A stretch of DNA of 64,000 nucleotides from Patescibacteria group bacterium UBA7435 (GTDB lineage Bacteria > Patescibacteriota > Minisyncoccia > Phycocordibacterales > UBA918): positions 19,942-83,941 of the forward strand of contig DLQJ01000007.1 of NCBI GenBank assembly GCA_002477545.1, written 5' to 3'. Of this stretch, positions 18,783 through 60,382 are shown in pieces. A program made the position numbers and the translations under genes. Under the pieces are notes generated by a model. The model was not told where the DNA came from, did no database searches, and saw only the letters and a list, made by a program, of their open reading frames with translations. Numbering within the stretch: position 1 is the first letter of the stretch; the number at the start of each line of letters is the position of its first letter.

Positions 18783-20183
18783 ATGAATGAATCACAAGCA
18801 ACACAAATAGTAATACTTGGAGGAAGCGGGGATCTGGCAAAGCGGAAACTTATTCCAGCACTGCTTGATCTCTATGTGCACAGAAAACTCCCTGACGTTT
18901 TTTCTGTTATCGGGTTAGCTCGAACACCTCGAAGCGACGAAGAGTACCGACAATTTGTAAACGACTCCCTTACAGCCCATGAACATGGCCATAGTCAAGA
19001 AGATATTTCTGCATTTTGTTCACGTGTATCATACATCTCTGGATCTTTTGACGACCCACAAAGTTACCAGACACTTAAAACTTCTTTAGATTCATTTTCT
19101 GATTCACAAAATGTCTGTACTAACAGGCTTTTTTATCTTGCGGTACCACCACAATATTACGAAACTATTTTTGAATATATTCACCAAACTGGGCTCGCGG
19201 AAAATTGCTCTGATGGGGAAGGGTGGGCACGTATTTTAGTTGAAAAACCATTTGGTCACGACCTTGAAACTGCACAAAAACTCGATCAAAAACTAAGCTC
19301 TTTGTTTACAGAAGATCAGATCTTTCGTATTGACCACTATCTTGCGAAGGAAGCGGTACAAAACATACTTTCATTTCGTTTTGCCAACACACTCTTACGA
19401 TCACCTTGGAACAAGGAACACGTGAAAGAAGTACGGATCACCATGCATGAAGATATCGATGTCCAAGACAGAGGAAATTTTTATGACGGTATCGGCGCGT
19501 TGCGCGACGTGGGGCAAAATCATCTACTGCAATTACTTGCTCTAATAACTATGGACGAACCTCAGGAGTTTACCGCAAAAAATATTAGAAAAAATCGAGC
19601 AGAAATTCTTAGTGCACTTATTCCCTTTACAGACCAAACAATACAAACACAACTACAACGTGCTCAGTACGAAGGATATACCAATACTACAGGTGTCGAT
19701 GAAAACTCAACGACCGAAACATTCTTTGCGCTTACCGCATATCTAGACACTGAAACTTGGCAAGGAGTACCGTTCCACATAGAAGCAGGGAAGGGGATGG
19801 CAGAAAAGAAAGTTTCTATTGAAATAGTATTTAATGATGTTGCATCAGGTTTGTTTGAAACTGACAGCTGTCACACCATACAAAACAAAGTCGTACTACA
19901 AATTTCTCCCGAGCAGAGTATGCATATTACACTCAATGCAAAAATGCCTGGGACAGGATACCAAATGGAATCACGCACACTTTCATTTGACTGCGATAAA
20001 TCAACACTAGAAATCAGTGCCTACGAAAAAGTCTTACTTGACTGCATTTCAGGTGACCAAACACTCTTTACACAGACCGAAGAAGTACTTGCATCTTGGA
20101 AATTCATAACTTCAATTCTTGAACGTTGGGGAGATCAAGAACTGCATATATATCCAAAGGGAAGTAAGACTCCTGTACAATAA
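18783..20183 (+). CDS. zwf: Glucose-6-phosphate dehydrogenase
   Basis: 'ILGGSGDLAKRKL', 'EKPFGHDL' and 'RIDHYLAKE'. The start was set at MNESQ because the longer ORF overlaps the upstream gene. Confidence 0.9.
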   Translation: MNESQATQIVILGGSGDLAKRKLIPALLDLYVHRKLPDVFSVIGLARTPRSDEEYRQFVNDSLTAHEHGHSQEDISAFCSRVSYISGSFDDPQSYQTLKTSLDSFSDSQNVCTNRLFYLAVPPQYYETIFEYIHQTGLAENCSDGEGWARILVEKPFGHDLETAQKLDQKLSSLFTEDQIFRIDHYLAKEAVQNILSFRFANTLLRSPWNKEHVKEVRITMHEDIDVQDRGNFYDGIGALRDVGQNHLLQLLALITMDEPQEFTAKNIRKNRAEILSALIPFTDQTIQTQLQRAQYEGYTNTTGVDENSTTETFFALTAYLDTETWQGVPFHIEAGKGMAEKKVSIEIVFNDVASGLFETDSCHTIQNKVVLQISPEQSMHITLNAKMPGTGYQMESRTLSFDCDKSTLEISAYEKVLLDCISGDQTLFTQTEEVLASWKFITSILERWGDQELHIYPKGSKTPVQ

Positions 20184-20193
20184 GATTATATTT

Positions 20194-21111
20194 ATGAAAA
20201 AAGAATTAACTTTTATAGGACTCGGAAGGATGGGAGCAGCAATGGCAGCAAATCTTGTTGAGCAAGACTACACAGTACACGGGTACGATGTGGACGACAA
20301 AGCGCGGTCTTCAGCAGATGTTGATGGTGTCATCGTACACAAAACACTTGAGGAGGCAGTTTCTACATTGCAGACACCTCGTACTATCTGGCTGATGCTC
20401 CCTTCAAAATATGTTGACGCTACACTCAAACAATTACGTCCTTTACTCACCTCAGGTGACACTATTATTGATGGAGGCAATAGTTTCTTTAAAGACTCAA
20501 TACACCGCCACAATGATCTCATGGCGGAGCCGATTCATTTTCTTGATTGTGGCACCTCGGGTGGTGTTAGCGGTGCACGTAATGGCGCATCTCTTATGGT
20601 TGGTGGACCAAAGGAAATTGTAAAGCAGCATGAACATATTTTTACTGCACTTGCCATAAAGGATGGGTACGGGCACGTTGGAGGTTCTGGTGCAGGACAC
20701 TTCGTAAAAATGGTACACAACGGCATTGAATACGGCATGATGGGTGCAATTGCTGAAGGAATTAATGTACTACATCATCATAAAGATGGCCTAGACTTAA
20801 ACATCAACGAAACACTCAAACCGTACCAACACGGGAGTATTATTGAAAGTAATTTAATGAACTGGATTTCTGATGCATATCACCTTGATGGGTATTTAGA
20901 AAAAATTGCCGGGGAAGTACCTACGGGAGAAACAGAGATGGAGATGGAGTATTTGATAGACCACGAAGATGTGCGGGTACTTGACGCGGCTGTACTACAA
21001 CGTAAACTGACGCGAATAGAACCCTCGTTCATTGGTACTCTTATTTCTGCAATGCGTAATCAATTTGGAGGTCATAAAATAGTAGACAAGGAGCCTGTTG
21101 ATACCGAATAA
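20194..21111 (+). CDS. gnd: 6-phosphogluconate dehydrogenase, short (YqeC/Gnd-like) form
   Basis: 'FIGLGRMGAAMAANL' Rossmann motif and 'GTSGGVSGARNG'. Confidence 0.8.
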   Translation: MKKELTFIGLGRMGAAMAANLVEQDYTVHGYDVDDKARSSADVDGVIVHKTLEEAVSTLQTPRTIWLMLPSKYVDATLKQLRPLLTSGDTIIDGGNSFFKDSIHRHNDLMAEPIHFLDCGTSGGVSGARNGASLMVGGPKEIVKQHEHIFTALAIKDGYGHVGGSGAGHFVKMVHNGIEYGMMGAIAEGINVLHHHKDGLDLNINETLKPYQHGSIIESNLMNWISDAYHLDGYLEKIAGEVPTGETEMEMEYLIDHEDVRVLDAAVLQRKLTRIEPSFIGTLISAMRNQFGGHKIVDKEPVDTE

Positions 21112-21116
21112 CTAAT

Positions 21117-21827
21117 ATGTCTATACCTAACATGCTCAATATCATGAAAGACACTGCGCAAGCAGTATCTGTTGCATTAGAGACTCACAAAAACAGTGAG
21201 GTGCTTCTGCTACTTGCCGGCGGCTCTGCACTGGATGTGCTTGAATATGTGGACACAAGTAGTATTAATGAATACACAACGATCATGATGATGGACGAAC
21301 GCTTTTCGAGTAAACCAGATGAAAATAATTACCTACAAATGAGTAAGTCATCCTTCTTCGAAAAAATTACTAAAAATGAAGCATACACCATTCCAACAGT
21401 TCCTGAGGAAGGGGAGACTTTAGAAAGTTTTGCTGAAATACTAAACAATACCCTACATACCTATTTTTCTGAACACCCAAACGCAACTGTACTTGCTTTG
21501 TTTGGCATAGGCGCAGATGGGCACACTGCAGGTATTTTTCCAATGAAGAATGTGGACTTTGTTGACACATACGGGCAAGGAGAGCTGTACGTACCAGTAC
21601 ACACAGCTCCAGCACCCTTTACACAACGATCGAGCATTACACCAAAATGCATTATGCAGCATGTAACAACTGCCTTTGTATATGCAGTGGGAGCAGAGAA
21701 AACTGCTATTTTGCAAACATTACATGATCCATATGAACTACATGAACTTCCTGCATATATCCATACACAAATTGAATCAAAGATTTTTACTGACCTTCCT
21801 TTGCAAAGAGAGCAAACTAGCACATGA
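21117..21827 (+). CDS. pgl: 6-phosphogluconolactonase
   Basis: 'LLLAGGSALDVL' and 'FGIGADGHTAGIFP' GlcN6P-deaminase/Pgl family motifs. Confidence 0.8.
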   Translation: MSIPNMLNIMKDTAQAVSVALETHKNSEVLLLLAGGSALDVLEYVDTSSINEYTTIMMMDERFSSKPDENNYLQMSKSSFFEKITKNEAYTIPTVPEEGETLESFAEILNNTLHTYFSEHPNATVLALFGIGADGHTAGIFPMKNVDFVDTYGQGELYVPVHTAPAPFTQRSSITPKCIMQHVTTAFVYAVGAEKTAILQTLHDPYELHELPAYIHTQIESKIFTDLPLQREQTST

Positions 21828-22312
21828 TGCAAAATTTATTACTTACCAAAACCAACAGTGCGATATTTACTCTAACTATACTTCTGATTGGATCTTCAAC
21901 GTTTATATATACAAACAATAAACACAGCGTTTCTAATATTGAAGATTTCGAGTCTCCTGTAGCTGCATGTATTCAAGCACTTCCTAAGAAAAAGAGGAGC
22001 AGTCACTACGAGTCCATAGTAGTACAGATCAACACAGATCTACAAAAAGACATCATCCTTAAAGAAACCGACACTACCTATTGCAACAAATTTGGATGTG
22101 CATACGAACTGTGTCTTATCACGAATACTTCTGCCGAAATAATTCCTTTTGGGTATACAGCTAAACGTCTAGTTGTAAAAAATACACACAACAATGGTTT
22201 ATACGACATTCAACTACTTGGGGAGCAGGCAACAGACCTTCAATGGGACGGCAACCAGTACATAATTAGTGGTCACTCACAGATTACAGAACCTGCAGAG
22301 CATTACCACTAA
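21824..22312 (+). CDS. Hypothetical membrane-anchored protein, ATGA-overlapped with the pgl stop
   Basis: N-terminal TM helix. No recognised domain. Confidence 0.4.
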   Translation: MMQNLLLTKTNSAIFTLTILLIGSSTFIYTNNKHSVSNIEDFESPVAACIQALPKKKRSSHYESIVVQINTDLQKDIILKETDTTYCNKFGCAYELCLITNTSAEIIPFGYTAKRLVVKNTHNNGLYDIQLLGEQATDLQWDGNQYIISGHSQITEPAEHYH

Positions 22313-22385
22313 AAGTTATTTAAATACTAAGGGTCGCACAATATTTCTACATAGGGAAGTGCAGTCGGTTGGGAAGATAGCTAAA

Positions 22386-22418
22386 ACAACTCAATCTTGA
22401 GTTGTTTTTAGCATTACA
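22386..22418 (+). terminator. Hairpin terminator after the zwf-gnd-pgl operon
   Basis: 'aaaacaactcaatcttgagttgttttt'. Confidence 0.55.
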
Positions 22419-22868
22419 GCAGCAACTCTGATACTCAGAGTGTTCCAGGATGAAAAAACAGGTACTAAGGTACCAGTAGAAATTTTTTGGCAAAAATTAT
22501 TTTGAAAATTTGAAATTATTTTTTGAAATAAATATACACGACTCAATACTCAAGCAGAAAGTTTTAAGATGCTTAGAATCCATTACAGAAGCGTGAAATA
22601 CAAGCAAAATGGATAATTATAGATATTATCTACATAAGCCTAATTCGATTCAATATGTTACTTATAGGTACATTAGGTCACAAAAGTACACTGTACGACG
22701 TGTATTAGGATGCTCTTACTACAAACATATCTGTTTGCGACGTATACACATGGCTTTGCCATTATGTATACGTCGCAAAAGATATATTGTGCGACGCTTA
22801 TAAGAATAGTTACGCTTGTACAATAAGCCCTTCCCGACTATAGTGTGCGTATCAACAAGGAGGTTAAA

Positions 22869-22988
22869 ATGATTTGGATAAAATCTATCACAGCAGTTCT
22901 TTTGTTTATCGCAGTTTCGGGATGTACTGCTCCATGTAATACAGGTTCAGGCCCTCTAACAATGTTCTTCGAATCTGTTTGCGATTAA
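22869..22988 (+). CDS. Small (39 aa) putative lipoprotein
   Basis: RBS 'aaggagg' about 7 nt upstream of the ATG. Signal peptide plus lipobox 'AVSGC'. Below the ORF-track size cutoff. Confidence 0.35.
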   Translation: MIWIKSITAVLLFIAVSGCTAPCNTGSGPLTMFFESVCD

Positions 22989-23045
22989 AGAAATTTCACA
23001 TAACAACAAAAGCGCCAAACGGCGCTTTTACTCTATTCCCCTTCC

Positions 23046-23507
23046 CTAGCCTGAAATCTCACTTTTAACAATATTTTTTTCAGCATCAAATACGAAGGCT
23101 CCAATAAATTTTTTACTTTCCAGGAGCATGGGCATCCAATGCGGATCATCTTTCCACATTTGATGATATGGAATTTCAGTATCAGGAAACCACTCAGGCA
23201 CCATTTCATCAGTTTCTGTTATTTTCCCTTCAAATTCCTCCACTTTATATATATGTACTTCATGGAGCTCGTCGGTATCCATATAGGAAAATTCTATAAT
23301 CCCCATTTTATGTTCAGCAGTAATGACAACACTGACACCTGACTCCTCATGCATCTCTCGCACTGCAGCTTCTTCAGGAGTTTCATGAGCTTCAACTTTT
23401 CCGCCAAAACCATTAAAGAGACCTTGACCAAAACCACGTTTTTTCATGCCCAGCAGTACACGGCCTTCAGTATGTAAAATACAAAGTGTTAAAATTTTTC
23501 TATCCAT
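23046..23507 (-). CDS. NUDIX hydrolase
   Basis: Nudix box 'GGKVEAHETPEEAAVREMHEESGV'. Confidence 0.8.
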   Translation of the reverse strand: MDRKILTLCILHTEGRVLLGMKKRGFGQGLFNGFGGKVEAHETPEEAAVREMHEESGVSVVITAEHKMGIIEFSYMDTDELHEVHIYKVEEFEGKITETDEMVPEWFPDTEIPYHQMWKDDPHWMPMLLESKKFIGAFVFDAEKNIVKSEISG

Positions 23508-24307
23508 GCTTGCTCACTTAAAAACTGGCCTTCTAGTAACATTGCGATGTGTTGATCGTACATGCTGGTATGTTGTGTAAGGAATACATTGCGTAATTGT
23601 GCCTCTTTGCTCAGGAGTGTCTCAATCTCAGGATGTGATTGAAGGTACGTTCTGAGTTTCATTGGGATGCTTTCTGTTTGTGAAAATACGGTAACACCGT
23701 TTCCAAATCGTTTCCTAATTTTCGAAGCAAGTAATGTGTAATGTGTACAGCCCAATATAATGCCATCCACGGCGACGCCTTGTAATAATCGATCGTCAAT
23801 CAACGCTTCGGTAATTGCGTAAGCACCAGCTATGTTCCCATCTTCAAGTAACGGAACTAATTCAGGTGTCGCTATAGCTTCGATTTTTACATCAAATTCA
23901 TTACGCTTACCAAGCTCAAGATGATATTTACCAGAACTTACTGTCCTTTGCGTTGCGAACATAAGTACTCGTTTACAGTCACTTTCTATGACATCTTCAA
24001 TAACAGGCACAATAACACCCAATATCTTACGATCTGGATACTCCAGTGGCAAAAATTCTTCCTGTAAGCGCCGTAACGTCTCCGCAGAGGCCGTATTGCA
24101 GGCAATTACTACCAAACTACAGTCTTTGGTAAAAAGATACTCTACGCCTATTTTTGTTAGTTCATAAATCTCCTCCTCAGTACGATCACCATACGGAAGA
24201 TGTTTAGTGTCCCCATAATATTCATAGTCATACTGTGACAGTTCTTTAGCTACTGCTTTCAGCACCAGTAATCCACCCAATCCAGAATCAAAAAAACCTA
24301 TTTTCAT
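23489..24307 (-). CDS. murI: Glutamate racemase
   Basis: 'FFDSGLGGL', 'VIACNTASA' and 'LGCTHY'. Confidence 0.9.
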   Translation of the reverse strand: MKIGFFDSGLGGLLVLKAVAKELSQYDYEYYGDTKHLPYGDRTEEEIYELTKIGVEYLFTKDCSLVVIACNTASAETLRRLQEEFLPLEYPDRKILGVIVPVIEDVIESDCKRVLMFATQRTVSSGKYHLELGKRNEFDVKIEAIATPELVPLLEDGNIAGAYAITEALIDDRLLQGVAVDGIILGCTHYTLLASKIRKRFGNGVTVFSQTESIPMKLRTYLQSHPEIETLLSKEAQLRNVFLTQHTSMYDQHIAMLLEGQFLSEQAWIEKF

Positions 24308-24465: not shown

Positions 24466-25026
24466 CTAGTACTTGCGGATCACTCCTTTTACGATCGCTG
24501 CGATTCGCATGTCGTATTCTGGATAAATTGGTTTGTAGTTTTTGTTTGCCGGTTCGAGCCATACTTTTTTTCCATCAGTTTTAAAATATTTAAGAGTCCA
24601 TCCATCGTCAACTTCAGCTATAACGATATCTCCATCTTTAGCAGTCTGTGATCGTTCTGCAATAACCAAGTCTCCTTCATCAATATGTGCTTCAATCATC
24701 GAATCTCCTTTCACTTCCAGAATAAAGGTCTTTTCTTTCTTTGGGACAAGGTATTCTTCAATACTTAATGTGTCGAGCACTTGCGAGTCTGCTGTACTTG
24801 GGATACCAGCTTCAACAAGACCAAGTAAGGGAATTTCCCCTGCGCTCATTGCAGGGAGAATTTTACCCTGTGCATCTTTTTCCAGTATTCCAGCGTCAAT
24901 AAGCTTGTGAACAAGTTTAGAAACAGCGTTCTTTGATTTGAATCCAACGAGCTCCATAATCTCCGCATAACTTGGCATGCGTTTGTTTCGATTATAGAAT
25001 TCGAAGATTTTATCTTGGTGACTCAT
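24466..25026 (-). CDS. lexA: LexA repressor
   Basis: N-terminal winged HTH, Ala-Gly cleavage site ('VEAGIP'), and an S24 domain with 'GDSM' and a catalytic Lys. Confidence 0.9.
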   Translation of the reverse strand: MSHQDKIFEFYNRNKRMPSYAEIMELVGFKSKNAVSKLVHKLIDAGILEKDAQGKILPAMSAGEIPLLGLVEAGIPSTADSQVLDTLSIEEYLVPKKEKTFILEVKGDSMIEAHIDEGDLVIAERSQTAKDGDIVIAEVDDGWTLKYFKTDGKKVWLEPANKNYKPIYPEYDMRIAAIVKGVIRKY

Positions 25027-26875: not shown

Positions 26876-27358
26876 TTATGCTTTTGCAAGCTTCACAACG
26901 TATTCAAAATGTTTTTTTGATACAGGGGTTATAGAAAGTCTACTCCCTTTTTTTGTCACTATCATCCCCTCTAACTTTGGATCAAGTTTCAATTCATTAA
27001 GTGTCACAATCCGTGGAAATTTCTGAATGAATTTCACATCCACCAGTAGCCATGTAGGATTCTCCTTTTTACTCTTCGGATCTGGATGATCACTCTTGGA
27101 ATCAAACTGTGTCGGGTCTGGATAGGCCTCACTTACAATTTTCATTTCTCCAACTACACCAATTTCTTTTGCATTGGAGTGATAGAACAGCACGTGATCT
27201 CCAATATGCATATCATCACGAATCATATTGCGCACTTGATAGTTACGAATACCATCCCAAGGTTCAACCTTGTTCCGCTTAAGATCATCAATCGAGAAGC
27301 AATCGGGCTCAGATTTCATTAGCCAATATTGTGCACTTTGGGAGGTTTTTGTATTCAT
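26876..27358 (-). CDS. EVE (PUA-like) domain protein
   Basis: 'YWLMKSEP...WDGIRNYQVRN...GDHVLFYHS' EVE signature. Confidence 0.75.
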   Translation of the reverse strand: MNTKTSQSAQYWLMKSEPDCFSIDDLKRNKVEPWDGIRNYQVRNMIRDDMHIGDHVLFYHSNAKEIGVVGEMKIVSEAYPDPTQFDSKSDHPDPKSKKENPTWLLVDVKFIQKFPRIVTLNELKLDPKLEGMIVTKKGSRLSITPVSKKHFEYVVKLAKA

Positions 27359-27888: not shown

Positions 27889-28287
27889 CTAGAGCGTTGG
27901 TGTTCCGGGTATTGTGGGTACTGTGGTGGTCCCAAACAATCCTCCTGCGATGATATTCACAATTCCCCAAATGGAAACCATGAGCACAAAGCCGATGATG
28001 GCATATGTTATTAGTTGTTTCCCTTTCTCTCGTTCTGCCTCATTTCCTCCACCAAGGATGAAGTACTTAAACATTCCGAACACAAATACCAACAGGGCAA
28101 GTGTGAATAATAACGGGATGAGAATGTTATCTATAAAACCTCCGATGTTTGTAAAAAATGTATCTACCTCTCCAAAGTATTGTTGTGCAGATGTCACTAT
28201 TGGCATTAACAGGATCAACATTGCATACTTCCCTATTGTTTTCTGAGCTTTATTCATATTAGTTATATTACCGTATACAGCTATCAT
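27889..28287 (-). CDS. VirB2/TrbC-like pilin-family small membrane protein (paralog 1)
   Basis: Signal peptide, TM1, charged loop 'GGGNEAEREKGKQ' and TM2 'GFVLMVSIWGIVNIIAGGLF'. Near-identical core to the next gene. Confidence 0.45.
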   Translation of the reverse strand: MIAVYGNITNMNKAQKTIGKYAMLILLMPIVTSAQQYFGEVDTFFTNIGGFIDNILIPLLFTLALLVFVFGMFKYFILGGGNEAEREKGKQLITYAIIGFVLMVSIWGIVNIIAGGLFGTTTVPTIPGTPTL

Positions 28288-28290
28288 TAT

Positions 28291-28662
28291 CTACGCACCA
28301 ATATCAGGTCCTGATGGAGTGTTTGGCGGTGTGTTATCAGGAAACAATCCTCCTGCGATAATATTTACAATTCCCCAAATAGAAACCATAAGAACAAAAC
28401 CAACTATCGCATACATCACTAGTTGCTTTCCTTCTTCTCGAGCTGACTCATTACCTCCGCCAAGAATAAAGTACTTGAATACGCCATATAGGAAAACCAG
28501 TAGTGCTATGGCAAAAATAAGCGGAATAAGTACTGAATTAATAAACCCGCTTATGTTATTAAAAAATGTATCTACCGTTCCAAACTGAGCTAATGCCATA
28601 ACTGGCAGAGCAAAGAGACTTCCAACAATTGCTATTCTTTTCATATACACAGTATATAGCAC
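28291..28662 (-). CDS. VirB2/TrbC-like pilin-family small membrane protein (paralog 2)
   Basis: Same architecture. The shared block 'LLVF.YG.FKYFILGGGNE.AREEGKQL..YAI.GFVLMVSIWGIVNIIAGGLF' is also similar at the DNA level. Confidence 0.45.
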   Translation of the reverse strand: MLYTVYMKRIAIVGSLFALPVMALAQFGTVDTFFNNISGFINSVLIPLIFAIALLVFLYGVFKYFILGGGNESAREEGKQLVMYAIVGFVLMVSIWGIVNIIAGGLFPDNTPPNTPSGPDIGA

Positions 28663-36133: not shown

Positions 36134-36237
36134 AAAGACTCCATTGAAAAAGCGTACGGTATACCGTACGCTTTTTCATAAACAAAAACAAACGACCAAT
36201 GCGCTAAGCGCATTGGTCGTTTGTTTTGTACGTGCCT

Positions 36238-39129: not shown

Positions 39130-40038
39130 ATGATTCAGCGATTTACACAAAAAAAACTCACCTGGTTGGATGTACTAAATCCAACTACTGAAGATATACG
39201 TGAAATTGCTGCTGAAGCAGGAATCCCCTCAGAATTTACCAATGACCTTACGGTAACCATTCCTCATAATGAGGTCTTCCATGTAAAAGGAGCGCTTAAA
39301 ATCACACTTGATTTTCCTATTGTAAAACGTACGGACATCAACCATCCTCATGAAATCAAATTTATTGTCACAAAGACTCACTTAGTCACTATCCGTTTTG
39401 AGGATATTGAGTCTATTCACCGCTTTGGAAAAGAATTTGAGGTTCTATGTATGCTTAATAACAAACAAGTAACACAACCTATTAATTTGTTTATTACCCT
39501 CCTGAATTACCTATACGATGCAATGTATTTAAAGCTCGATTATCTGGAAACAAAGATGCGTGACATCGAGGAAGAAATATTTAACGAACATGAGCGTGAG
39601 ATGGTATTTGAAATATCGAGTGTGAGCCGTCGCCTAATTACCTTTAAACAAACAATTTCAGCACACGAAAACGCCTTAATGCGTTTGCGCGGCTCTGTCG
39701 GTTTTGCATTTGGTAAGAAATACGAAGAACGTATAAATGAGCTTGAGCATCATTTCCGTAATCTCAATCGACAAGTCTATGCGCTTTCAAGCACACTTGA
39801 TGACCTTCGTGATACCAACATGGCTCTGCTTTCAACAAAACAAAACGAAACCATGAAGATTTTTACCATCCTCGCCTTCATTACCTTTCCACTTACCCTA
39901 TTCACCTCGATGTTTGGCATGAACACCGTTACTACACCGATTGTTGGCCAAGAAGGAGACTTTTGGATTATCTTAAGTGTCATGGCTATTGTTTCTGTTT
40001 TCTTCTTTGTGTTTTTCAAGTATAAGAAATGGATCTAA
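39130..40038 (+). CDS. corA: CorA-family Mg2+/Co2+ transporter
   Basis: C-terminal 2-TM segment with 'MFGMN'. Confidence 0.8.
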   Translation: MIQRFTQKKLTWLDVLNPTTEDIREIAAEAGIPSEFTNDLTVTIPHNEVFHVKGALKITLDFPIVKRTDINHPHEIKFIVTKTHLVTIRFEDIESIHRFGKEFEVLCMLNNKQVTQPINLFITLLNYLYDAMYLKLDYLETKMRDIEEEIFNEHEREMVFEISSVSRRLITFKQTISAHENALMRLRGSVGFAFGKKYEERINELEHHFRNLNRQVYALSSTLDDLRDTNMALLSTKQNETMKIFTILAFITFPLTLFTSMFGMNTVTTPIVGQEGDFWIILSVMAIVSVFFFVFFKYKKWI

Positions 40039-40147
40039 AGTGGTTGGCACCACTTTAGATCTGATCCGAGGGCGAGCGAAGCTCCAGCGATTTGCCCTAG
40101 GAAGGAAAAAATCGGGACATCAATTCACAGTAGTTAAGCAAACTAAG

Positions 40148-40212
40148 AAGCGCAGCGACTATAGTTTTCTTATGTCAGAACCTGTTCTGTCCTTGGGCAG
40201 ATTCTGACCACT
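40148..40212. repeat. Copy A of a conserved intergenic hairpin element (5' box AGCGCAGCGACTAT, an 11-bp stem with one mismatch, loop TTCTGTCCTTGGG)
   Basis: Copy B lies at 43866-43930. The loop and 5' box are conserved while the stem differs by paired changes. Confidence 0.5.
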
Positions 40213-40364
40213 ACGTTCCTTTCTTCATTTAATTTTCTGATCTTTAGGAGGAAATGGTGGGGCGCAGTTTGTATTTCTAACCCTTGTGCTACATAATAAC
40301 TCTTTCGCATAAAATTCACCTGAGTCACATTTGATCCCTCGCATCCATCTGCTACACTACATCA

Positions 40365-41819
40365 ATGTTTAACCTCTTTAAATCAGAGAAGGATTCTAGT
40401 GCACTCTTTCCTCCTGTTACGCTTTTTAATAGTGAATCACGCGAAACCGAAACGTTTGAACCACTTTCAAAAAAGGAAGTGCGCGTATACTCATGCGGGC
40501 CAACTGTCTACGACTACGCACACATCGGTAACCTTCGTGCATACACGTTCTCTGACATACTTAAGCGAACGCTTCTGTACAATGGATACAACGTAAACCA
40601 CACGATCAACTACACTGACTTTGGTCACCTTGTGTCTGACGCTGACGAGGGTGAGGACAAAATGATGAAGGGCTTGAAACGTGAGAATATGGAAGTATCC
40701 CTTGAGTCTATGCGACTACTCTCTGATAAGTTCATTGCTGCATTTGAAAAAGACATGGAATCACTCAATGTGATCCCTCCAACACAATACGCGCGAGCAA
40801 GTGAGTATGTGACCGAACAGATTAAACTCATTCAAACACTTGAAGAAAAAGGCTATACATACAAAACCTCAGACGGCGTGTACTTTGATATTTCAAAATT
40901 CCCTACCTATGGACGCCTTGGTAACATCAACGTAGAAGAACTTCGTGGTGGTGCACGTGTAGAAGAAAATTCAGAAAAGAAACATCCTGCAGATTTTGCC
41001 GTTTGGAAGAATGGTGACCTTGGTTGGGACAGCGCGTGGGGTAAAGGTTTCCCAGGATGGCACATTGAGTGTTCTGCCATGGCATTTGCGACACTTGGTA
41101 AACAAATTGATATTCATACTGGAGGCGTAGACAATATGCCAACGCATCACAACGGTGAAATTGCGCAGTGTGAAAGTGCAACAGGAAAACAATTTTCAAA
41201 ATACTGGATGCATAGCGAGCATATTCAAATACAAGATCAAAAAATTGCAAAGTCTGAAGGTAACGGAATTATTCTTAGTGACCTTCTTGAAAAAGGATAC
41301 TCAGGTACTGATTACCGCTACTGGCTACTACAAAGCCATTACCGTTCACAGGTAAACTTTAGCTATGAGGCCTTGGATGCAGCAAAGCAAGGACTCATCC
41401 GTTTGAAGCGTTTAGTGTTTGAAGAATGGAGGGACGAACGAGGAAAAATTAATGAAGAAAAACAGCTCGAGATTGTATCTGCAATCAATAACGATTTAGA
41501 TACTCCAAAAGTGATCGCAATGATGCATGACCTTACTAAAGACGAAACCTTGACCACCGGCGAGCGAAAGGCACTAATCTTGGAATGCGACGCACTGTTA
41601 GGACTTGGATTATCTGACGATCCAGAAGATGGTCTAAGGGCGATGGGACATGTCGCTCTAACCTCGTTGCCCCAAAACATACTCGAGATGATTGACCAAC
41701 GCGAAGCTGCTCGCGTAGCCCGAAACTGGGCAGAGGCAGATCGCTTACGTGACGCACTTTTATTGGCAGGTTACACCGTCGAGGATTCCTCAGAAGGACC
41801 AAAGGTTACCAAGCAATAA
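40365..41819 (+). CDS. cysS: Cysteinyl-tRNA synthetase
   Basis: 'YSCGPTVYDYAHIGNLR' (HIGH) and a 'KIAKSEGN' (KMSKS-like) motif. The zinc-site Cys was not checked. Confidence 0.9.
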   Translation: MFNLFKSEKDSSALFPPVTLFNSESRETETFEPLSKKEVRVYSCGPTVYDYAHIGNLRAYTFSDILKRTLLYNGYNVNHTINYTDFGHLVSDADEGEDKMMKGLKRENMEVSLESMRLLSDKFIAAFEKDMESLNVIPPTQYARASEYVTEQIKLIQTLEEKGYTYKTSDGVYFDISKFPTYGRLGNINVEELRGGARVEENSEKKHPADFAVWKNGDLGWDSAWGKGFPGWHIECSAMAFATLGKQIDIHTGGVDNMPTHHNGEIAQCESATGKQFSKYWMHSEHIQIQDQKIAKSEGNGIILSDLLEKGYSGTDYRYWLLQSHYRSQVNFSYEALDAAKQGLIRLKRLVFEEWRDERGKINEEKQLEIVSAINNDLDTPKVIAMMHDLTKDETLTTGERKALILECDALLGLGLSDDPEDGLRAMGHVALTSLPQNILEMIDQREAARVARNWAEADRLRDALLLAGYTVEDSSEGPKVTKQ

Positions 41820-42449: not shown

Positions 42450-43856
42450 ATGGCTGACACATCCAAACCATTGGCTCGAAGCCTCCGTACACCGCCTCAC
42501 AATATTGAAGCTGAAAAAGCGCTTATTGGTGCAATCATGCTCAAACCTGAGGTAATGCATGATGTGTCAGTGAATATTTATCCTGAGAGTTTCTATGCTG
42601 ATAAACACAGTCAGATCTTTCAAGCGATTCTTACCATCTTTACCAAAGGTGATCCTATCGATCTTCTTTCGGTAACCACACGTCTGAAGTCTGAAGGGCA
42701 ACTTGACCGTGTTGGTGGAGCAACATACATTAACGAGCTTGTGGACACTGTACCTGCTGCTGGTAACGCTTCATACTATATGGAGCTCGTGCAAGCAAAA
42801 GCAGTTCTTCGGGGTCTTATTCACGCTGCAGACGAGATTGCTGAGATGAGTTACGCAGATCCTGAAAATCTTGACGAAACACTTGATCAGGCAGAAAAGA
42901 AAGTCTATGGAGTAACCAACTCTACCTCAACAGGAAAATTCAAGACCATCGGTAACTCACTTACCGAAGCCTGGGAACGATTTGAATACCTTAGTGCAAA
43001 CCAAGACGAAAAACGTGGAGTGCCTACAGGTTTCCATGCGCTTGATAATGTACTGGCCGGTTTCCAAAAATCTGACCTTATCATTCTTGCAGCGCGTCCA
43101 TCTATGGGTAAAACAACCTTCGCCTTAGACCTTGCGCGTAATGCAGCACTTGAGTACGGAAAGTCAGTTGGTATCTTTTCATTGGAGATGAGTGATCAAC
43201 AGTTGGTTGACCGTATGCTTGCCGCTGACGCGGGAGTAGACTCATGGAAACTGCGTACCGGTAAACTCAATACTGACGCTGAATTCGAAGCAGTACAAGC
43301 ATCAATGGCTAAGCTTTCTGACGCACGCATTCATATTGATGATCAGCCAGGGACAAACATTCTTAAGATGCGTTCTGCGGCACGGCGATTGAAGAACGAG
43401 CATGGTCTTGATCTTCTTATTGTGGACTACCTCCAACTTATGAGTCCTACCAACTCAAAAGCAAGTGACTCGATGACACAACAGGTGACAGAAATTTCTC
43501 GTGCACTGAAGCTTCTTGCTCGTGAACTTGATGTACCGGTGCTCGCACTCTCACAGCTGTCGCGTGCGGTTGAACAACGTGGTGGAAAGCCGAGATTGTC
43601 AGACCTTCGTGACTCAGGGTCTATTGAGCAGGATGCTGACGTGGTGATGTTTATTCACCGCGAGGACAAAGCAAACAGAGACGTTGAATCAGAACGACCA
43701 AACATCGCAGAAATCATGGTTGAGAAACACCGTAATGGTCCAGTTGGGTCAGCTGAGCTATACTTCGACGGTCAGCATGTACGCTTCCTTAATCTGGACA
43801 CGAACCATTCAAGTAATGCGATAGAGCATGCAACAGCACAGGATGATGACTTCTAA
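42450..43856 (+). CDS. dnaB: Replicative DNA helicase
   Basis: 'PPHNIEAEKALIGAIML' N-terminus, Walker A 'ARPSMGKTT' and 'SGSIEQDADVVMF'. Confidence 0.9.
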   Translation: MADTSKPLARSLRTPPHNIEAEKALIGAIMLKPEVMHDVSVNIYPESFYADKHSQIFQAILTIFTKGDPIDLLSVTTRLKSEGQLDRVGGATYINELVDTVPAAGNASYYMELVQAKAVLRGLIHAADEIAEMSYADPENLDETLDQAEKKVYGVTNSTSTGKFKTIGNSLTEAWERFEYLSANQDEKRGVPTGFHALDNVLAGFQKSDLIILAARPSMGKTTFALDLARNAALEYGKSVGIFSLEMSDQQLVDRMLAADAGVDSWKLRTGKLNTDAEFEAVQASMAKLSDARIHIDDQPGTNILKMRSAARRLKNEHGLDLLIVDYLQLMSPTNSKASDSMTQQVTEISRALKLLARELDVPVLALSQLSRAVEQRGGKPRLSDLRDSGSIEQDADVVMFIHREDKANRDVESERPNIAEIMVEKHRNGPVGSAELYFDGQHVRFLNLDTNHSSNAIEHATAQDDDF

Positions 43857-43865
43857 TGAACAAAG

Positions 43866-43930
43866 GAGCGCAGCGACTATTGTGAATTAATGTCGGAAAT
43901 TGTTCTGCCCTTGGGTAATTTCCGACCTAG
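43866..43930. repeat. Copy B of the conserved intergenic hairpin element (10-bp perfect stem gtcggaaatt/aatttccgac, loop GTTCTGCCCTTGGGT)
   Basis: See copy A at 40148-40212. Confidence 0.5.
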
Positions 43931-44083
43931 TGACATACTGTAAGAACGAAGGGTATATTATGAATTTAGTCCCCAATTTCACCTTTTGTCCTAAGGCAAA
44001 TCGCTGGACCTAACAACTCTCAATTCTCCTCTCGCTCCAATGTAACCACCACAACAACCTAAACAACTTTTTACACCAACAAG

Positions 44084-44701
44084 ATGACAAACCTAGACAA
44101 ACTCATTAAACACTTCGAACGCTTCCCTGGTATTGGAGGCCGACAAGCACGACGCTTTGCGTTTCATGTTCTTACCTTGCCTGATGCTGATGTAACTGAA
44201 ATAGCTGAATTACTGACAAACTTACAATCATCAGTAATTGAGTGTTCACGGTGTCATCGATTCTTTTCAAAAAATGATGGTCCTACTGAGATGTGTTCTA
44301 TCTGCACCGATGGTAACCGAGATCGATCAAAGCTGATGGTAGTCGAGCGCGACACTGACGTACAATCAATCGAGCGGTCAGGTATCTACAACGGCCTCTA
44401 CTTTGTGCTCGGAGGCACTATTCCCCTGCTTGAATCAGCTGAATCAAACAAACTTCGCGGAGGTGCACTGAAGGCTTCTATTGATGCACAGATAACCGAA
44501 GACCTCACAGAAATAATCTTAGGATTCTCAGTAAATCCTGATGGAGAAAATACTGGGCGCTATGTAGAAACATTACTTAAGGAGCATATTGCAGAACATA
44601 ATCTCACCATCACCCAATTAGGACGTGGACTTTCTACCGGAAGTGAACTCGAGTATGCTGACCCCGAGACTATTAAGAACGCTTTGAAGAATAGATCCTG
44701 A
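44084..44701 (+). CDS. recR: Recombination protein RecR
   Basis: 'RFPGIGGRQARRFAFHVL' HhH region, a C4 zinc finger 'CSRCHRF...CSIC', then Toprim. Confidence 0.9.
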   Translation: MTNLDKLIKHFERFPGIGGRQARRFAFHVLTLPDADVTEIAELLTNLQSSVIECSRCHRFFSKNDGPTEMCSICTDGNRDRSKLMVVERDTDVQSIERSGIYNGLYFVLGGTIPLLESAESNKLRGGALKASIDAQITEDLTEIILGFSVNPDGENTGRYVETLLKEHIAEHNLTITQLGRGLSTGSELEYADPETIKNALKNRS

Positions 44702-46814: not shown

Positions 46815-46854
46815 AGTCCGACTATTTTACCACGTAATGAAAAACACAAAAATG

Positions 46855-46906
46855 TGTGTAAGGGTAGTCCTTACACAACATATTGTGTAAGGACTACCCT
46901 TACACA
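46855..46906. promoter_or_regulatory. Two inverted copies of the TGTGTAAGG-N6-CCTTACACA palindromic unit, forming a hairpin with a 24-bp stem and a 4-nt loop, directly upstream of rmuC
   Basis: Seen directly. Same half-sites as the 35749-35771 palindrome. Confidence 0.5.
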
Positions 46907-46916
46907 CATTTTCGCC

Positions 46917-58678: not shown

Positions 58679-60382
58679 TTACACGATTTTTCCATTATGC
58701 AATCGATACACCATACGTGCAAGCCGTATCTGATTGTAATCGTATTCCTCATTTGTCGCTTCAAAAATAGGCTTCAATTTTTCAGTACCAACCTCATCCA
58801 TTACTGCCTGTAGTACCTCATATTCATCACTCCAATTTTTATACTGTGACGTAAGCGAGACAAGATCACTGTCAGTTAGATCTTGATCAACTACCAATTT
58901 CTCTAAGTGCGTCCAGACTGTCGATTCTCCAATTTTTCGTTTCTTTGCAATCTGTGGGACGGTATTTCCTTCGAGTAATGCTTCTTTAGTAAGGGCAAAT
59001 GTACTTTCTTTCTGAACCCGCTCGTACCCCTTCTTCTCCTGTACTTTAATTTCACCACTGACGTACTCGCCTCCTGAAGCTTTCACAAACGCCTTGTGCA
59101 TAGATTCAATCTCGTCTTCTTCCATTTCAGTAAAGGCATCTTCTGCTTGACCTGATTCATCTCTAAAGCGTGCGTCAATGGAAACAATCTTCGGGTCAAC
59201 ACGAAGTGCCGTTGGACTCATACCCAGCATCTTTAATCCAGCCAAAGTTCGCACCCGAGAAAGTGCTACATATCCCTGCCCATACACAAACGCTCGAGAA
59301 AGATCAATCTCAGCAGCATCAAGTGACATTCCCTGACTCTTGTGTACGGTAATAGCCCACGCAAGCCGCAATGGTACTTGAGTAACCTCAGCAAGTACTT
59401 TGTTATCCTCCGCCATACTCCAACTGGTTGGCTTAATGGTAATCTGCTTCCCTTCGGTGGTTTCGATTATTGGGTTTCCATCCTCACCATCAAAGTTCAC
59501 CACCCGTCCCAACGTTCCATTTACATACCCCTCCTCAAAGTTGTTCTTCGTACACATCACCATCGCTTCTTCCTTAAGTTCCAAAAGTTCAGGAGACAGA
59601 CAGTTCTTAGCTAATCCTTGTTGCATGATCTTATTCCCCACCCCACTCATCTTGAAACGTGTGACAGAACCTCCAAGCTCACCAAGTTTTGTTGCATTCA
59701 CTGAATCAACGTCGGCGTTGTGGGTATAGAGTTTCGTTGGCTCAATACCTTCATACGCAATCTCAGTTTGTTCCGAAAGGAGTGTAAAGTGCTCATCATC
59801 CACGTCGTTTTTTCGAATAGATTGCAGAAGACTTAAGAGCATCTCGTCTTCCTGACGATACTGATCGGTAAGGTAGCAAATAAGTGGTCGCGCATCTTCC
59901 CATCCACGTGATTCAAATGCGTAGCGCATCATGTCCCCCTGCCGAGTAACGGGAGGCAACTGAAAGAAGTCACCTACAAAAATTGTCTGGATACCACCAA
60001 ATGGTTCAGAACTCTGACGAATGGTCTTGCAGACAATATTCACCATATCAACCAACTTCCCATCAAGCATCGAAATCTCATCAATCACCAACACCTGTGC
60101 CTTCTTCACCCGCTTTACAATCTTTTCTTTGGTAGTAATCTGCTCAAGATCGTACTCATTAAGTTGATCGCGCGCGCCAATACCACTCCATGCATGGATT
60201 GTCATCCCACCAATGTGCGTTGCAGCAATCCCGGTACTCGCCGCCACAGCGACCTTCACCCCACATGCCTCAAGGTACGCAATGTATTGGTTGATCACAT
60301 ACGTCTTACCAGCACCCGGTTCTCCCGTTAGAAACACATTTCCTCCCGTCTTCAGAATTTCAAGCGCTCTGTCTTGTGTCAT
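58679..60382 (-). CDS. Pif1-family SF1 DNA helicase with C-terminal HTH-like extension
   Basis: Walker A 'GEPGAGKT', 'VLVIDEISM', 'QLPPV' and 'AITVHKSQGMSLD'. Confidence 0.8.
   Translation of the reverse strand: MTQDRALEILKTGGNVFLTGEPGAGKTYVINQYIAYLEACGVKVAVAASTGIAATHIGGMTIHAWSGIGARDQLNEYDLEQITTKEKIVKRVKKAQVLVIDEISMLDGKLVDMVNIVCKTIRQSSEPFGGIQTIFVGDFFQLPPVTRQGDMMRYAFESRGWEDARPLICYLTDQYRQEDEMLLSLLQSIRKNDVDDEHFTLLSEQTEIAYEGIEPTKLYTHNADVDSVNATKLGELGGSVTRFKMSGVGNKIMQQGLAKNCLSPELLELKEEAMVMCTKNNFEEGYVNGTLGRVVNFDGEDGNPIIETTEGKQITIKPTSWSMAEDNKVLAEVTQVPLRLAWAITVHKSQGMSLDAAEIDLSRAFVYGQGYVALSRVRTLAGLKMLGMSPTALRVDPKIVSIDARFRDESGQAEDAFTEMEEDEIESMHKAFVKASGGEYVSGEIKVQEKKGYERVQKESTFALTKEALLEGNTVPQIAKKRKIGESTVWTHLEKLVVDQDLTDSDLVSLTSQYKNWSDEYEVLQAVMDEVGTEKLKPIFEATNEEYDYNQIRLARMVYRLHNGKIV

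Follow-up and report, generated by a model that had tools for sequence, protein, structure and literature searches.

A covarying two-hairpin repeat at the dnaB 3′ end in Patescibacteria and the case for a miniature mobile element

The dnaB–recR spacer

The genes corA, cysS, dnaB, and recR follow one another on the forward strand of the patescibacterial DNA analysed here, a stretch of 64 kb that is referred to as the window (Table 1). An earlier note on this DNA had described, between the replicative helicase gene dnaB and recR, one copy (copy B) of an intergenic hairpin element: a perfect 10-bp inverted repeat, GTCGGAAATT / AATTTCCGAC, which closes a 15-nt loop, GTTCTGCCCTTGGGT, and is preceded by a box, AGCGCAGCGACTAT. 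All of these parts are borne out. The two arms occupy positions 43892-43901 and 43917-43926, the box lies at 43867-43880—10 nt past the dnaB stop codon at 43854-43856—and the recR start codon follows at 44084.

A 10-bp stem alone is unremarkable in this DNA, as 84 pairs of inverted repeats 10 nt or longer are present in the window, most of them bidirectional terminators. Copy B becomes noteworthy because it is repeated and conserved, both as copy A in the same window and in other genomes. The box has a single further exact match in the window, at 40149-40162 between corA and cysS, at a chance expectation of 0.25. The kinship of copy A and copy B, likewise proposed beforehand, is upheld: the two agree at 85% over 76 nt, and the covariance model R1—built from both copies and applied without filters to the entire window—scores copy A at about 100 bits and copy B at 99 bits, with everything else at 13 bits or less. 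Hairpins are plentiful in the window, and one might hence dismiss copy B as a hairpin that arose by chance or as an intrinsic terminator of the ordinary kind, without a family behind it. A second copy at about 100 bits versus a background of at most 13, covarying homologues elsewhere, and the missing T-run after the stem make this idea practically negligible.

Table 1. Features of the corA–recR segment of the window.
Feature	Position	Strand	Evidence and remarks
corA	39130-40038	+	Upstream of A′ and A; own 13-bp hairpin at 40032-40061
Copy A′	40074-40234	−	Older full-length element, split by copy A; R2 43.9 bits, E = 4e-8
Copy A	40136-40209	+	Intact 74-nt unit AAGCAAAC...TCTGACC, inside A′; R1 99.9 bits
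cysS	40365-41819	+	Downstream of A′ and A; ORF domain scan
dnaB (replicative helicase)	42450-43856	+	Upstream of copy B; 468-aa ORF; Pfam DnaB, DnaB_C
Hairpin P1 of copy B	43853-43890	+	RNAalifold consensus; 10/13 P1 pairs with double-sided changes
Copy B	43854-43927	+	Intact 74-nt unit TAATGAAC...CCGACC; R1 99 bits, R2 88.8 bits
Hairpin P2 of copy B	43892-43926	+	14 bp including a tandem U.G pair; loop UGCCCUU
Copy B′	43936-44017	+	Decayed tandem copy; nhmmer E = 0.006; R2 18.4 bits, E = 0.07
recR	44084-44701	+	Downstream of copies B and B′; Pfam RecR_HhH, Toprim_4, RecR_C

The boundaries of the copy B unit were set by homology to the insertion boundaries of copy A (see below). The first three bases of the unit are the dnaB stop codon TAA. 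Deleting the unit in silico joins GACTTC to TAGTGA, by which the dnaB stop is retained at the same codon.

Two covarying hairpins on one strand

The element at copy B is larger than had been drawn in the earlier note. A second hairpin, P1, covaries as well and has the box as its apical loop; below this loop, it consists of an outer stem (P1a), a middle stem (P1b), and a 2-bp tip (P1c). The dnaB stop codon lies in the base of P1, and the same holds for the counterparts of copy B in the related contigs L024, L034, and L035. The 10-bp stem belongs to the hairpin P2, for which a comparison of ten copies adds four pairs (G.U, U.G, U.G, C-G). Since these form beyond the 10-bp stem, P2 extends to about 14 bp, and its loop is reduced to the 7 nt UGCCCUU.

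An alignment of ten of the eleven intact copies describes a unit of 74-85 nt that is made almost wholly of P1 and P2 with 1 nt between them. Therein, P1 comprises an outer 5-bp stem, a middle stem of 4-6 bp, a 2-bp tip, and the loop GAGCGYAGCGACUAU, and P2 comprises about 14 bp with the 7-nt loop UGYCCUU. The two hairpins resemble each other neither in sequence nor in loop. On this structure, 91.7% of the cells are paired, versus 31-45% when partner columns are slid by 1-3 positions. Double-sided changes are found in 17 of 27 pairs—compared with 8.2 ± 1.8 after shuffling, where 0 of 500 shuffles reach 17—and for P2 taken alone in 7 of 14 pairs, with 95% of cells paired. The P1 and P2 helices are recovered independently by RNAalifold, and each copy folds by itself into both hairpins. 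Two other folds were considered and rejected. A pseudoknot of AAGG in P1 with CCUU in the P2 loop shows no covariation, and an alternative P2 tip, in which GUUC bulges out and CUUG forms a tetraloop, is disrupted in L024, L034, L035b, and L040, so that the continuous stem is favoured.

The fold is specific to one strand, as judged from U.G pairs that are conserved on that strand and from the greater stability of the sense strand. Near the tip of P2, the U.G pair of alignment columns 62/74 is conserved in nine of ten copies, and columns 63/73 hold U.G in six copies of ten and U-A in two. With RNA parameters, the sense strand is the stabler one in eight of ten copies (mean −22.2 vs −18.1 kcal/mol). 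When DNA energy parameters are used instead, neither strand has a clear advantage, and the prediction misses upper P2 with its G.T pairs. As the conserved U.G pairs suit RNA better than DNA, a role at the RNA level or an RNA intermediate is a live alternative to a purely DNA-borne element. Folding of one strand brings the two ends of the unit, 5′ and 3′, next to each other. The left flanks are T-rich—column 4 is T in eight of the nine copies that have a base there, and column 5 covaries within P1a—and beyond this T preference the ten-copy alignment holds no fixed motif next to the left end.

The pattern of substitutions also bears on the possibility that the palindromes form a duplex DNA site for a dimeric regulator such as LexA. 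The tip of P2, TGCCCTTGGGCA, is near-palindromic, a LexA gene lies in the window (24466-25026), and both dnaB and recR belong to DNA replication and repair. A protein site would however keep its sequence, whereas the stem arms here swap bases and yet stay paired (G-C to C-G, A-U to G-C), and the U.G positions would be mismatches in duplex DNA. Together with placements beside cysS, rsmI, and yqeY and with the insertion behaviour described in the following, this renders a regulator site very improbable. A micro-ORF starting ATG TCG GAA... was rejected too: neither its frame nor its length is conserved, the ATG is missing in L034 and L040b, and the substitutions in it are those expected of stem compensation.

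A nested insertion between corA and cysS

The spacer between corA and cysS holds two elements, one inside the other. Copy A is intact and interrupts the older minus-strand element A′, whose halves lie at 40074-40135 and 40210-40234, with the two elements arranged head to head. R2 matches the A′ interval from end to end, with a large insert inside, and the 3′ half is found by nhmmer at E = 1.5e-8. The split falls into the P1 apical loop of A′, at GGAACGTAGT^AACTAC. Excising exactly 40136-40209 (74 nt) rejoins A′ as a gap-free full-length minus-strand element, which aligns without gaps to L026, L035a, L035b, and L024 at roughly 80% identity. The restoration of a gap-free A′ identifies copy A as a precise insertion that lies inverted within the P1 loop of A′. 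At this junction—the one clean junction—the target duplication amounts to 0-1 nt. Terminal inverted repeats are absent, as the ends of copy A, AAGCAAAC... and ...TCTGACC, are not inverted repeats of each other.

A profile search of the window brought up both decayed copies, A′ on the minus strand beside A and, downstream of dnaB, B′ on the plus strand 13 nt past the 74-nt copy B unit. Copy B′ has lost its P1 loop by deletion and has a stem of the older type, ...AAATCGCTGGACC. On its 3′ side, it shares an orthologous flank with the lone copy of the relative L024. The B/B′ pair may stem from insertion or from tandem duplication. Counting decayed copies, the window holds four copies at two loci, and each intact copy adjoins a decayed older one: A by A′ and B by B′.

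Two further observations concern the corA–cysS spacer. The 13-bp hairpin of corA, GATCTAAAGTGGT..ACCACTTTAGATC, overlaps the stop codon of that gene. In L030, too, corA is followed by such a hairpin (AAAGTGG...CCACTTT), along with a partial second copy, and this may be a conserved corA 3′ hairpin. Upstream of cysS, at 40340-40367 in the window and in the corA–cysS spacers of L026, L028, L030, and L032, a −10-like motif (TGGTACACT / GCTACACTA) stands 8-12 nt before the start codons, and no Shine–Dalgarno sequence is seen. Judged from the sequence, this suggests leaderless or near-leaderless mRNAs in the lineage of the window. If so, copy A would lie upstream of the cysS promoter and not within the cysS 5′ UTR.

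The corA–cysS–dnaB–recR locus among relatives

The order corA–cysS–dnaB–recR is kept in relatives whose RecR is 67-90% identical to that of the window, and the element is not kept along with it. One plus-strand copy occupies the dnaB–recR spacer of L024/L025 (RecR 90%), where the P2 arms are rewritten by compensatory changes and carry a CU bulge, and another that of L034 (RecR 72%). In L026/L027 (RecR 84%), two independent assemblies agree on one minus-strand copy in this spacer. L035 (RecR 79%) bears one plus-strand copy at the dnaB stop and another copy between an ATPase gene and yqeY, and L040 (RecR 67%) bears a minus-strand copy abutting the recR ATG and about 1.5 copies upstream of cysS. 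The element is absent from L028, L030, L032, and L037 (RecR 72-83%), where the spacers measure 5-51 nt and hold at most a simple GC-rich hairpin. Every known copy lies between genes or overlaps a gene end, and the family is found in both orientations: of the independent placements, about five run in the direction of the neighbouring genes, and about four (~4/9: L026, L040, L002/L042, and A′ of the window) are antisense. The spacing from the element to the downstream start codon is not conserved.

These placements bear directly on the two suggestions that had been made for copy B, namely a 3′-UTR regulatory element or a small mobile or repeat element family. The latter gains support from the copies in relatives, their presence and absence, their two orientations, and the nesting of copy A. 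A regulatory 3′ UTR as the primary nature of the element, on the other hand, is not supported, given the share of antisense placements, the four relatives without the element, and the variable distance to the start codon. A secondary effect of copy B on the 3′ end of the dnaB transcript is conceivable nonetheless.

In its more elaborate form, this regulatory alternative would have the element act in cis as a structured RNA in the dnaB 3′ UTR or the dnaB–recR spacer—as a stabiliser, an RNase site, or a noncanonical terminator—which is inherited vertically and duplicated locally. Copy B and its counterparts in L024, L034, and L035 all begin at the dnaB stop in the orientation of dnaB. Stem covariation and the conserved U.G pairs point towards RNA; moreover, relatives without the element bear a different GC-rich hairpin at the same place, and exactly one intact copy is kept at each locus of the window. 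In L026/L027 and L040, however, the element lies on the opposite strand, which puts its strand-specific fold outside the dnaB/recR transcript, and four syntenic relatives do without it. Elsewhere the surroundings are unrelated, with copies antisense to the 3′ end of rsmI and between divergent genes. No U-tract is present although canonical terminators are the norm in this genome, and an inverted nested insertion such as that of copy A is not what a cis-acting RNA predicts. Taken together, we consider a cis-acting RNA unlikely. Still, the same two or three spacers are filled across lineages with RecR identities of 67-90%, which could reflect long-term retention for a host function instead.

Some side observations were made at these loci. 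Just past the dnaB stop of L040 (5722-5800), a fragment, AACCTGTCCGTGGGCAGAAT, resembles the P2 tip of the element, and this resemblance suggests a further, decayed copy besides the intact minus-strand copy beside recR. In L024 (8417-9844), dnaB is called as two ORFs of 335 and 136 aa on a JGI/NCBI contig, and the Logan assembly L025 has it intact at 466 aa; a frameshift or an assembly error in the one contig is the likely cause. Where the element is absent or lies further upstream, a different recurring hairpin, GGGGTCNGACCCC or GGGGTTCAACCCC, is found upstream of recR—at L028:9955-9990, at about 5900-5925 of L035 (in the spacer between a 192-aa ORF and recR), and at L032:7018-7036—and may represent a second small conserved hairpin family.

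The family in other genomes

Eleven intact copies form the family as it stands: two in the window and nine in related Patescibacteria/Paceibacteria contigs, that is one each in L002, L024, L026, L034, and L042 and two each in L035 and L040. When 185,579 species-representative genomes were scanned with a strict pattern, one true further copy, in L002, and two chance matches came up. L002 is a Candidatus Paceibacterota MAG without genes orthologous to those of the window; its copy scores 83 bits and lies between two minus-strand genes. The density of copies is low, with two loci in the 64 kb of the window and one strict-pattern match in a 623-kb Paceibacterota contig. The pattern scan of metagenome contigs returned 12 chance matches only, from a collection that evidently lacks the JGI sample bearing the window sequence. 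Viral contigs, scanned with four patterns, gave no true copy and three chance matches (L016, L017, L041), and no meaningful match came from blastn searches of plasmids and phages. At least 24 contigs, drawn from ENA, JGI, Logan, and NCBI, encode the RecR protein of the window, and on six of these (L018-L023) all element copies are identical to those of the window; RecR homologues carry Patescibacteria labels. Across the family, sequence identity between copies does not track the relatedness of their hosts: copy A is 82% identical to the L002 copy and 73% to copy B, and L035b is the copy nearest to all others.

Insertion polymorphism and nesting are also seen away from the dnaB locus. The site at rsmI is occupied in L002 and L042 and empty in the relative L044, which has a 9-nt spacer there. 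In Candidatus Nomurabacteria CP060227.1 (L042/L043), the ortholog of the L002 copy carries two insertions: one of 55 nt splits its P1 loop (GAGCGC^AGCGAC), and the other, about 96 nt long, lies in upper P2. Both inserts are composed of P1-like pieces, and a further intact copy lies 8 kb off. In L002, the rsmI ORF enters the antisense element by 16 codons and thereby reaches 239 aa, compared with 223-226 aa in most homologues.

The conserved unit has no promoter, terminator, or coding capacity of its own, and similarity between copies ends at the hairpin bases. This has to be weighed against a further RNA-based explanation, in which the copies would be genes of a small trans-acting RNA with two hairpins and a length of about 80 nt; such an RNA would bind a protein or pair with targets, and redundant duplicates of its gene would decay. 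Strong strand-specific covariation, the conserved loops GAGCGYAGCGACUAU and UGYCCUU, and the indifference to the orientation of flanking genes would suit such a stand-alone gene, which would be a new RNA as it has no Rfam match. A unit that brings neither promoter nor terminator, with nothing terminator-like after P2, that overlaps the stop and start codons of its neighbours and lengthens the rsmI ORF, and that is absent from close relatives fits this picture poorly. Nesting of members in the loops of one another is moreover what mobile DNA typically shows, unlike sRNA genes, and we deem a trans-acting RNA quite unlikely.

Comparison with known RNAs, terminators, and recombination sites

Rfam 15 gave no match above the gathering threshold in the window or in six loci, and a search of both window copies and one L035 copy at E values up to 10 returned only nonsense matches of at most 18 bits. 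ARAGORN found no tRNA or tmRNA. A T-box leader, which the position of cysS downstream of copy A might bring to mind, lacks T-box and Stem I motifs and an Rfam match, and the element precedes recR and yqeY as well. The SRP RNA, whose gene is often found near recR, was rejected for its unfit architecture and the missing Rfam match, and a tRNA-like minihelix, considered for the GACCA end of several copies, for a loop unlike a T-loop. No consistent −35/−10 pair indicates a promoter, and the next ATG follows at distances from 32 to 212 nt. An intrinsic terminator would require a U-tract, but P2 is followed by CCTAGTGAC, and a terminator scan does not call this hairpin; the true terminators of the window are canonical hairpins of A-run, GC-stem, and T-run. 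The element shares with terminators and 3′ stabilisers a stable hairpin right after a stop codon, and differs from terminators by the missing U-tract, its second conserved hairpin and conserved loops, its two orientations, and its occurrence away from gene 3′ ends.

Among recombination sites, an integron attC was rejected, as GTTRRRY/RYYYAAC cores are missing and the neighbours are housekeeping genes without an integrase. The same applies to a TIR-type MITE moved by a DDE transposase, since the element has neither terminal inverted repeats nor a fixed target duplication. Transposase, integrase, or HUH-nuclease domains are absent from the roughly 56 scanned ORFs of the window and from the vicinity of the other copies, and Y1_Tnp/RAYT is absent from the window ORFs and the retrieved loci. 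Neighbouring hypothetical ORFs carry no transposase domain; the 192-aa ORF of L035 is weakly RNase_T-like.

Relation to known mobile repeats

Several bacterial repeat families resemble the element in part. With REP sequences and BIMEs, it shares its small size, noncoding nature, and hairpin formation, its place in spacers at gene ends in either orientation, its adjacent or inverted pairs (A′/A), the maintenance of stems by compensatory change, and the lack of terminal inverted repeats. A REP is however one palindrome of about 20-40 nt with a GTAG-type head, whereas the element measures 74-85 nt and has two unlike hairpins with conserved loops and no such head. Moreover, REPs usually occur in tens to hundreds of copies; the element appears to be low-copy in the DNA covered here, and a RAYT gene is not seen among the window ORFs.

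The IS200/IS605 family leaves no target duplication on insertion. IS200/IS605 elements and their gene-less derivatives, the PATEs, carry subterminal palindromes on the top strand (PMC10055086). Like PATEs, the element is devoid of genes, has asymmetric ends, and shows neither terminal inverted repeats nor a target site duplication. Functional hairpins on one strand at both ends are matched in part: two hairpins fill the unit and U.G pairs are conserved on one strand, yet these hairpins are terminal instead of subterminal, and folding with DNA parameters gives no clear difference between the strands. Unlike PATEs, it has no demonstrated adjacent motif of 4-5 nt, tnpA, tnpB, and iscB are absent nearby, and its 74 nt are far fewer than those of described PATEs. 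The left and right hairpins of IS200/IS605 are alike and bound by the same TnpA, whereas P1 and P2 are unrelated in sequence; likewise, the element ends flush with its hairpin bases, whereas IS200/IS605 ends lie 10-20 nt outside the hairpins.

ERIC/IRU, the Correia elements of Neisseria, the pneumococcal RUP and BOX elements, and the RPEs of Rickettsia resemble the element as intergenic, hairpin-forming sequences of variable presence, some of which overlap gene ends. RPEs add residues to ORFs, as the element does in the 16-codon extension of rsmI in L002. These families nevertheless have terminal inverted repeats and/or target duplications (TA for Correia) or are modular (BOX), and they bear no sequence similarity to the element. 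Literature searches brought up no report of ERIC/IRU, Correia, RUP/BOX, or RPE from Patescibacteria and nothing relevant on such small repeats in this group. To our knowledge, no small repeat or noncoding RNA family has been described in Patescibacteria (CPR). The best reading of the family is that of a previously undescribed, hairpin-type miniature mobile repeat, with REP and IS200/IS605-derived elements as its nearest counterparts.

Interpretation and proposed mechanism

Insertion polymorphism, indifference to orientation, self-nesting, decay in place, and the lack of an own promoter together point to a non-autonomous mobile element. On balance, we somewhat favour copy B as a member of a low-copy family of such repeats (~74-85 nt) in Paceibacteria-like Patescibacteria, which would be mobilised in trans via a single-stranded intermediate in the manner of REP or IS200/IS605 elements. 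Membership in one family, conserved structure, asymmetry between the strands, insertion polymorphism, and nesting are shown by the comparison of copies. The single-stranded-DNA route and the type of enzyme are what we infer from likeness: IS200/IS605 "peel-and-paste" elements (PMC10055086) and, likewise, REP elements with their RAYT transposases move as single strands that are recognised by their hairpins, and trans-mobilisation via a single strand is proposed here because these systems share hairpins, missing terminal inverted repeats, and missing target duplications with the element. As no transposase, integrase, or HUH nuclease was found in the scanned ORFs, the mobilising enzyme is hypothetical.

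In such a mechanism, P1 and P2 would be the structure by which an enzyme acting in trans recognises the unit, and this enzyme would excise or copy the unit as a single-stranded intermediate. The unit would then be pasted without target duplication into sites that are themselves exposed as single strands, such as short gene-end spacers and the loops of resident copies. Selection for transposition competence would keep the stems paired, and copies that are no longer needed would decay in place, as A′ and B′ may have done. The insertion at dnaB would supply or overlap the stop codon incidentally, and any effect on the expression of dnaB or recR would be a side effect.

A bolder variant is rather unlikely but of greater consequence. 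Here, the element would be a hairpin-only mobile "dumbbell", its ends joined by the stacking of its two hairpins, that inserts into single-stranded loops, chiefly those of its relatives, by means of neither a known HUH nor a known DDE transposase; host functions in replication or repair, or else an intermediate made of RNA, would be candidates for the machinery. Alternatively, it would be a functional RNA domesticated by the host. Either would be a first for the CPR/Patescibacteria, which are poor in mobile elements, and the significance of the family would rise considerably if the mobilising activity were new or the RNA functional.

For the favoured mobile repeat, too, some consequences can be named. 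Patescibacteria (CPR) genomes are very small and compact, and a covarying, self-nesting element of 74 nt shows that miniature mobile DNA persists in them. The element reshapes gene ends, as it supplies the stop codon of dnaB and adds 16 residues to RsmI. It might serve as a handle for finding its mobilising enzyme and as a strain-level marker for metagenomes. For annotators, it calls for caution, as conserved hairpins of this kind should not be taken for riboswitches or UTR regulators.

Other features of the window

Further palindromes are found outside the family. Between rmuC and a P-type ATPase gene (46849-46912) lies a perfect inverted repeat, AAAATGTGTGTAAGGGTAGTCCTTACACAA, whose 30-nt arms are separated by a spacer of 4 nt. 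Sub-palindromes are nested within it, the ordinary terminators of the window are far shorter, and no T-run is present. The spacer between the L27 gene and a peptidyl-prolyl isomerase gene (36145-36227) holds two adjacent perfect palindromes with arms of 19 and 21 nt, to which the covariance model gives only weak matches at chance level.

On a larger scale, the cumulative GC skew turns from rising to falling at about 20000-24000 (peak at about 18 kb), and gene orientation changes from mostly plus to mostly minus near 22-23 kb, with the LexA gene just beyond. This switch is consistent with converging replication (a terminus) or with a rearrangement point. Two small tandem genes at 27889-28662 match the T4SS_pilin family and lie beside a gene for an EVE-domain protein (26876-27358), and a PIF1-type helicase with an HTH_40 domain is encoded at 58679-60382.
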